Assembly (NCBI RefSeq): GCF_003334785.1
Contig: NZ_QOWV01000001.1
Length of the DNA: 64,000 nt
Source: Escherichia coli
GTDB taxonomy: Bacteria > Pseudomonadota > Gammaproteobacteria > Enterobacterales > Enterobacteriaceae
Strand: one strand, 5' to 3'
Shown here: one piece after another, positions 7,493 to 7,519 of the stretch
Layout of the letters: every line of letters starts with the position of its first letter
Numbering within the stretch: position 1 is the first letter of the stretch
Notes under the pieces: model-generated
The model's input: the letters and a program-made list of their open reading frames with translations, nothing else
What the model was told of the DNA's origin: nothing
The model's database searches: none
Program-made: the position numbers and the translations under genes

Positions 7493-7519
7493 TTATCGGC
7501 AAGGGACGGGTAATCTTTA
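7493..7519 (-). promoter_or_regulatory. Sigma-28 (FliA) class 3 promoter for flgMN
   Basis: Minus strand reads TAAAGATT-N11-GCCGATAA, a near-perfect match to the sigma-28 consensus TAAAGTTT-N11-GCCGATAA; the -10 element ends about 44 nt upstream of the flgM ATG. Confidence 0.7.

Follow-up and report, generated by a model that had tools for sequence, protein, structure and literature searches.

Among the class 3 flagellar promoters of Escherichia coli, those of tar, tsr, yhjH, motA, fliC and flgK have the architecture TAAAGTTT-N11-GCCGATAA in common with that of flgM, and the same arrangement was given as the sigma-28 consensus by Hollands et al. 2010, who counted flgMN among eight well-characterised sigma-28 promoters of E. 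coli K-12 (PMC2859248). The closest described system is the K-12 flgM promoter itself, flgMp, whose 28-mer TAAAGATTACCCGTCCCTTGCCGATAAA was bound by FliA in vivo in the ChIP-seq of Fitzgerald et al. 2014, with a signal 48-fold above threshold, and was assigned there to flgMN (PMC4183435). Its product FlgM binds and inhibits FliA and is exported when the hook-basal body has been completed, which is established knowledge (summary in PMC4183435). Like flgK and fliD, flgM is dual-regulated, with an upstream class 2 transcript reading through it. The flgM class 3 promoter of Salmonella enterica, of which a mutational analysis by Wozniak & Hughes 2008 is cited in PMC2859248, occupies the orthologous place directly after the flgA stop codon and has the same -35 element TAAAGATT and the same 11-nt spacing; it differs from that of E. 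coli in the last two bases of the -10 element, in the spacer sequence and in how far the ATG lies from the -10 element (59 nt in Salmonella, 43 nt in Escherichia). In Salmonella subsp. arizonae and diarizonae the -10 element reads GCCGATGA.

The window analysed here, a stretch of 64 kb of E. coli DNA, includes the flgN-flgM-flgA-flgB stretch, which was found in all 5426 complete E. coli genomes and is annotated there under these names. The 1.7 kb from flgN to flgB (6700-8400) is matched at 100% identity by E. coli K-12 MG1655, as by many other E. coli genomes, the offset to NC_000913.3 being +1,122,679; there, flgM is b1071 at 1,129,835-1,130,128 and flgA is b1072. An earlier note, made from the sequence, had named flgA and flgM correctly, as judged by identity to MG1655 and its annotation, and had proposed a sigma-28 promoter of flgM beginning just after the flgA stop codon, with 15 of 16 positions matching the consensus and with exact 11-nt spacing. 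Direct reading of the minus strand, ...ctgTAAgctgtTAAAGATTacccgtcccttGCCGATAAataagcaacacatgataaaagcgccctcaatgaggaataaaccATG, confirmed these coordinates, the 15/16 match to TAAAGTTT-N11-GCCGATAA and the spacing, and the position after flgA was borne out as well, the TAA stop codon (7527-7525) being followed by a gap of 5 nt and then by the -35 element (7519-7512). Both octamers lie inside the 75-bp flgA-flgM spacer and are oriented toward flgM and then flgN on the same strand, with the flgM ATG (7449) located 43 nt beyond the last -10 base. A terminator scan of the minus strand of the flgA-flgM interval gave no terminator-like site, and no Rfam family overlapped the promoter locus. The published 28-mer corresponds to 7519-7492 on the minus strand of the window; the locus thus has the same DNA, the same 28-mer and the same operon as K-12 flgMp, and nothing different from it. 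We read the site, with a probability of about 0.97, as flgMp, the class 3 sigma-28 (FliA) promoter of flgMN in E. coli K-12. The promoter is already known and is no novelty, in keeping with the earlier note, which had called it well described biology. The features of the locus are collected in Table 1.

Table 1 Features of the flgM promoter locus, in positions of the window.
Feature	Position	Strand	Remarks
-35 element TAAAGATT of the flgM class 3 (sigma-28) promoter	7512..7519	-	7/8 vs TAAAGTTT
11-nt spacer ACCCGTCCCTT	7501..7511	-	Length fixed, sequence free except last T (7501)
-10 element GCCGATAA	7493..7500	-	8/8 to consensus, CGA core at 7498-7496
Transcription start zone	7484..7487	-	+1 most likely A at 7485 (NC_000913.3 position 1,130,164)
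5' UTR of class 3 flgMN transcript, 36 nt	7450..7485	-	From sequence and the PMC7549644 construct; Shine-Dalgarno GAGGA 7461-7457
flgM, anti-sigma-28 factor, 97 aa	7156..7449	-	ORF; 100% identical to MG1655 b1071, annotated anti-sigma factor for FliA
flgN, export chaperone, co-transcribed with flgM	6735..7151	-	ORF; RefSeq b1070; flgMN operon in PMC4183435
flgA, upstream gene with class 2 (FlhDC/sigma-70) promoter for the longer flgAMN transcript	7525..8184	-	ORF, annotation, PMC4183435
Perfect 11-bp GC-rich inverted repeat, candidate flgMN transcript end	6704..6726		Low confidence, no U-tract

When at most one mismatch was allowed, the flgM site was the sole match in the 64 kb window, both strands included, and matches were absent from all 100 dinucleotide-preserving shuffles. 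With at most three mismatches, four matches were found in the window against 0.53 expected, one of them, at 15639-15665 (+), being the known flgK promoter. A weight matrix of 28 positions was built from the 52 FliA ChIP-seq motifs listed in Table 2 of Fitzgerald et al. 2014 (PMC4183435), and the flgM site, scored with a leave-one-out matrix, reached 24.6 bits and ranked 2/52, behind tar. It stayed the top score of the window when both the flgM and the flgK sites were left out of the matrix. Thirty first-order Markov simulations of the window peaked at 18.4, their maxima averaging 14.4. Among the published sites only tar matches the 16-nt consensus at all positions, while flgM, yhjH and tsr match at 15, so that four sites fall within one mismatch. 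The mismatched base of flgM is at -35 position 6, where the 52 published FliA sites have A in 23 and T in 23 and the 22 strongest have A in 11 and T in 10. Because A and T are equally frequent at this position in bound sites, the flgM promoter is effectively a full-consensus one. The CGA core of the -10 element is invariant in the 22 strongest published sites.

Other FliA-like sites were seen in the window. The sequence TCAAGTCCGGCGGGTCGCTGCCGATAAT at 15639-15666 (+) corresponds to the published class 3 promoter of flgKL, whose ChIP-seq signal is 47-fold above threshold and whose matrix score is 18.1 bits; it is the second real sigma-28 promoter of the window and is also dual-regulated, via read-through from flgB-J. 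The sequence TAAAAATAACGCCCATAATGCCGATAAA at 58656-58683 (+), located antisense within ymfA, scores 22.6 bits on the FliA matrix, above the genuine flgK promoter. This site is missing from the 52-site ChIP-seq list (PMC4183435) and from the part of the SELEX table that covers the region (PMC5493296). It has A at -35 position 5, where G is usual, and the same G-to-A change at the aer promoter was reported to lower activity from 223 to 50 units (PMC2859248). The site is apparently an example of a near-consensus FliA-like sequence that is not used.

Conservation of the promoter was examined by a FlgM protein scan with one genome per species, which yielded 80 loci from about 25 genera of Enterobacteriaceae. 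The sequences assessed were 79, namely 78 of the scanned loci and the window itself, each with at least 130 nt upstream of flgM; two loci truncated at 18 and 60 nt upstream were left out, of which the one truncated at 60 nt still carries TGCCGATAA. The pattern TAAAG-N3-N11-GCCGAT occurred within 200 nt upstream of flgM in 79/79 sequences, with a spacer of 11 nt in all 79. Since anchoring on a pattern fixes its columns by construction, a second, unanchored alignment was made of the 130 nt upstream of the ATG, comprising 75 distinct sequences. In this alignment the two octamers had identities to the E. coli base of 0.96 (-35) and 0.94 (-10), compared with 0.39 for the spacer, 0.34 for the gap between the stop codon and the -35 element and 0.51 for the 3' end of flgA; the first flgM codons stood at 0.91. 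The T directly 5' of GCCGAT (7501), which the anchoring pattern did not demand, was invariant. The motif lies outside flgA in every genus, mostly 5-6 nt past its stop codon, which rules out coding constraint on flgA as the cause of the conservation. Of 5426 complete E. coli genomes, 5074 were identical over the 90 nt that surround the motif, and in the most divergent genome the changes were confined to the spacer and the flanks of the motif.

The genus Buttiauxella departs from this picture in its surroundings. In its ten loci the motif follows the flgA stop codon at 26 nt, and TAAAGGTT is the usual -35 element, with the spacing and the -10 element unchanged; the promoter is thus preserved in surroundings that have moved.

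Binding of sigma-28 at this site has been demonstrated in published experiments, in vivo as well as in vitro. Besides the ChIP-seq signal (PMC4183435), Shimada et al. 2017 obtained a SELEX peak with reconstituted RpoF holoenzyme in vitro in the flgM-flgA spacer, with an intensity of 15.0 (PMC5493296), and the two data sets together support the sigma-28 promoter that the earlier note had predicted for flgM. That FliA is able to drive flgM was documented in a flhD deletion strain, in which overexpression of fliA restored flgM RNA (PMC4183435). The same study described, and supported with its data, an overlap in E. coli between the flgAMN operon (class 2) and the flgMN operon (class 3) (PMC4183435), in agreement with the flgMN transcript separate from the class 2 flgAMN transcript that had been anticipated from the sequence. 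The locus combines the features by which a sigma-28 class 3 promoter is recognised, namely the -35 octamer, the -10 octamer with its CGA core, the 11-nt spacing, a score above chance, a suitable position and orientation, and conservation.

RNA polymerase carrying sigma-28 (FliA) recognises TAAAGATT as the -35 and GCCGATAA as the -10 element, 11 nt apart, and starts at about 7485 to give a flgMN mRNA with a 36-nt leader; the FlhDC-dependent class 2 promoter upstream of flgA gives a longer flgAMN transcript reading through the sigma-28 site. As two promoters read flgM, by class 2 read-through and by class 3 initiation, the gene has two inputs. Free FliA makes more of its own inhibitor FlgM, generating a negative feedback loop on FliA activity; it is the promoter that closes this loop, since FlgM, the inhibitor of FliA, stays subject to export upon hook-basal body completion. 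The autoregulatory loop evoked in the earlier note, with sigma-28 driving its own anti-sigma factor, fits the established knowledge summarised in PMC4183435. The loop couples flagellar gene expression to assembly and is a textbook checkpoint circuit. The value of the present case is that of a positive control, in which an experimentally validated promoter, together with its start, was located from sequence alone to an accuracy of one or two bases.

Near-consensus FliA-like sites that are not bound do exist, the one at 58656-58683 with its 22.6 bits being absent from the ChIP-seq list and from the region-covering part of the SELEX table, and this lends some substance to the view that the flgM match arose by chance, or that its conservation is unrelated to sigma-28 and reflects flgA coding constraint or the site of another protein. 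The absence of matches in the shuffles speaks against chance, the placement of the motif wholly outside flgA (including the 26-nt distance in Buttiauxella) speaks against coding constraint, and a pair of conserved blocks held at constant distance across a freely variable spacer has the look of a two-element promoter; we regard this explanation as effectively refuted. Scarcely more credible is that the plus strand holds the relevant element, a sigma-70-type promoter (7517-7545, TTAACA-17-AATATT) producing a transcript antisense to flgA. The scan credited it with 9/12 consensus matches, yet two such sites were found in the region against 2.0 expected from shuffles, which is the chance level, and nothing else favoured it; this candidate was rejected.

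A reading that we hold as a real possibility, if the less probable side of the question, is that the promoter is genuine and occupied and makes a minor contribution, with the class 2 flgAMN transcript as the main source of flgM in ordinary growth and the sigma-28 promoter mattering only when FliA activity is high, as after FlgM export, in swarming or during filament repair. It would refine the main explanation, without replacing it. In motile MG1655 grown in LB, deletion of fliA changed flgM RNA from 451 to 318, a difference that was not significant, and the authors concluded that under their conditions most transcription of dual-regulated genes came from FlhDC-dependent class 2 promoters; a role in repair and swarming proposed for dual class 3 promoters, relayed in the same paper, points the same way (PMC4183435). 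That flgM RNA does not collapse in the fliA deletion, as tar, tsr and fliC RNA do, is explained by the dual regulation of flgM through class 2 read-through. By contrast, an E. coli reporter study found the class 2 signal to be near background and most FlgM to come from the class 3 promoter (PMC4295839), and the strict conservation of the octamers over about 25 genera argues for selection on the promoter. The two studies disagree on the main promoter of flgM, and conditions or method may be the cause. Because class 2 read-through would be included, a reporter assayed in a fliA mutant could understate the class 3 promoter, and a fusion must therefore exclude the flgA promoter. The relative share of each promoter, class 2 and class 3, is a matter that we infer from these reports.

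The transcription start could be placed by combining a published construct with a general spacing rule. The flgM::gfp fusion of Romilly et al. 2020 contained nucleotides +1 to 105 from the transcription start and was joined after codon 23 (PMC7549644); subtraction of 69 coding nucleotides from 105 leaves a 36-nt leader, so that +1 would be 7449 + 36 = 7485, an A located 8 nt past the last -10 base. According to Fitzgerald et al. (bioRxiv 10.1101/188474), transcription from flagellar FliA promoters begins 18-22 bp downstream from the centre of the motif, which for the flgM motif corresponds to 7484-7487, and the AAC at 7486-7484 is conserved across genera. The Cappable-seq supplements contained no matching coordinate or gene name for flgM. 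From the construct arithmetic and the spacing rule, the class 3 +1 of flgM is most plausibly 7485 +/- 2, and the start around 7485 given in the earlier note agrees with both sources. Published data document binding of the FliA holoenzyme and point indirectly to a FliA-dependent start at this place, within the range of about 6-9 nt downstream of the -10 element expected of such promoters.

The leader that would follow from this start is short in Escherichia. In E. coli, E. albertii and E. whittamii the ATG follows the -10 element at 43 nt, compared with 57-66 nt in most of the other Enterobacteriaceae loci scanned; in a representative alignment the Escherichia leader carries a gap of 17 nt. Short distances, of 43-45 nt, also occur in a few Buttiauxella loci. 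A block CCTC-RAT-GAGGA at the ribosome-binding site is invariant and was kept throughout the Enterobacteriaceae loci. The difference in length could alter a transcript-specific translational control of the class 3 flgM mRNA between E. coli and Salmonella, a reading that we consider unlikely.

In the window this block forms a short inverted repeat, CCTC-AAT-GAGGA, at 7457-7468 (-), whose 3' arm is the Shine-Dalgarno sequence. Folding of the 5' UTR together with the early coding region gave a minimum free energy of -7.7 kcal/mol (z = 0.18), a value that does not improve on that of shuffles, and the minimum-energy structure did not include the repeat; a CCTC-AAT-GAGG hairpin at the Shine-Dalgarno sequence was rejected on these grounds. 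As the block is nearly invariant across genera, it offers no covariation to test.

At the other end of the operon, murJ and flgN converge on the perfect 11-bp inverted repeat TCCGGCCTGCA / TGCAGGCCGGA at 6704-6726. With no T run on either of its strands, the repeat was passed over by the terminator scan. The flgMN transcript probably ends near this repeat, an assignment that we hold loosely, and the repeat is possibly a bidirectional terminator or an RNA-stabilising hairpin. Elsewhere in the window, the Rfam search matched the RNase E 5' UTR element at 21713-22049 (-), with 260 bits, and the SraB sRNA at 23910-24078 (+), with 211 bits, both of which are expected for that part of the K-12 chromosome.
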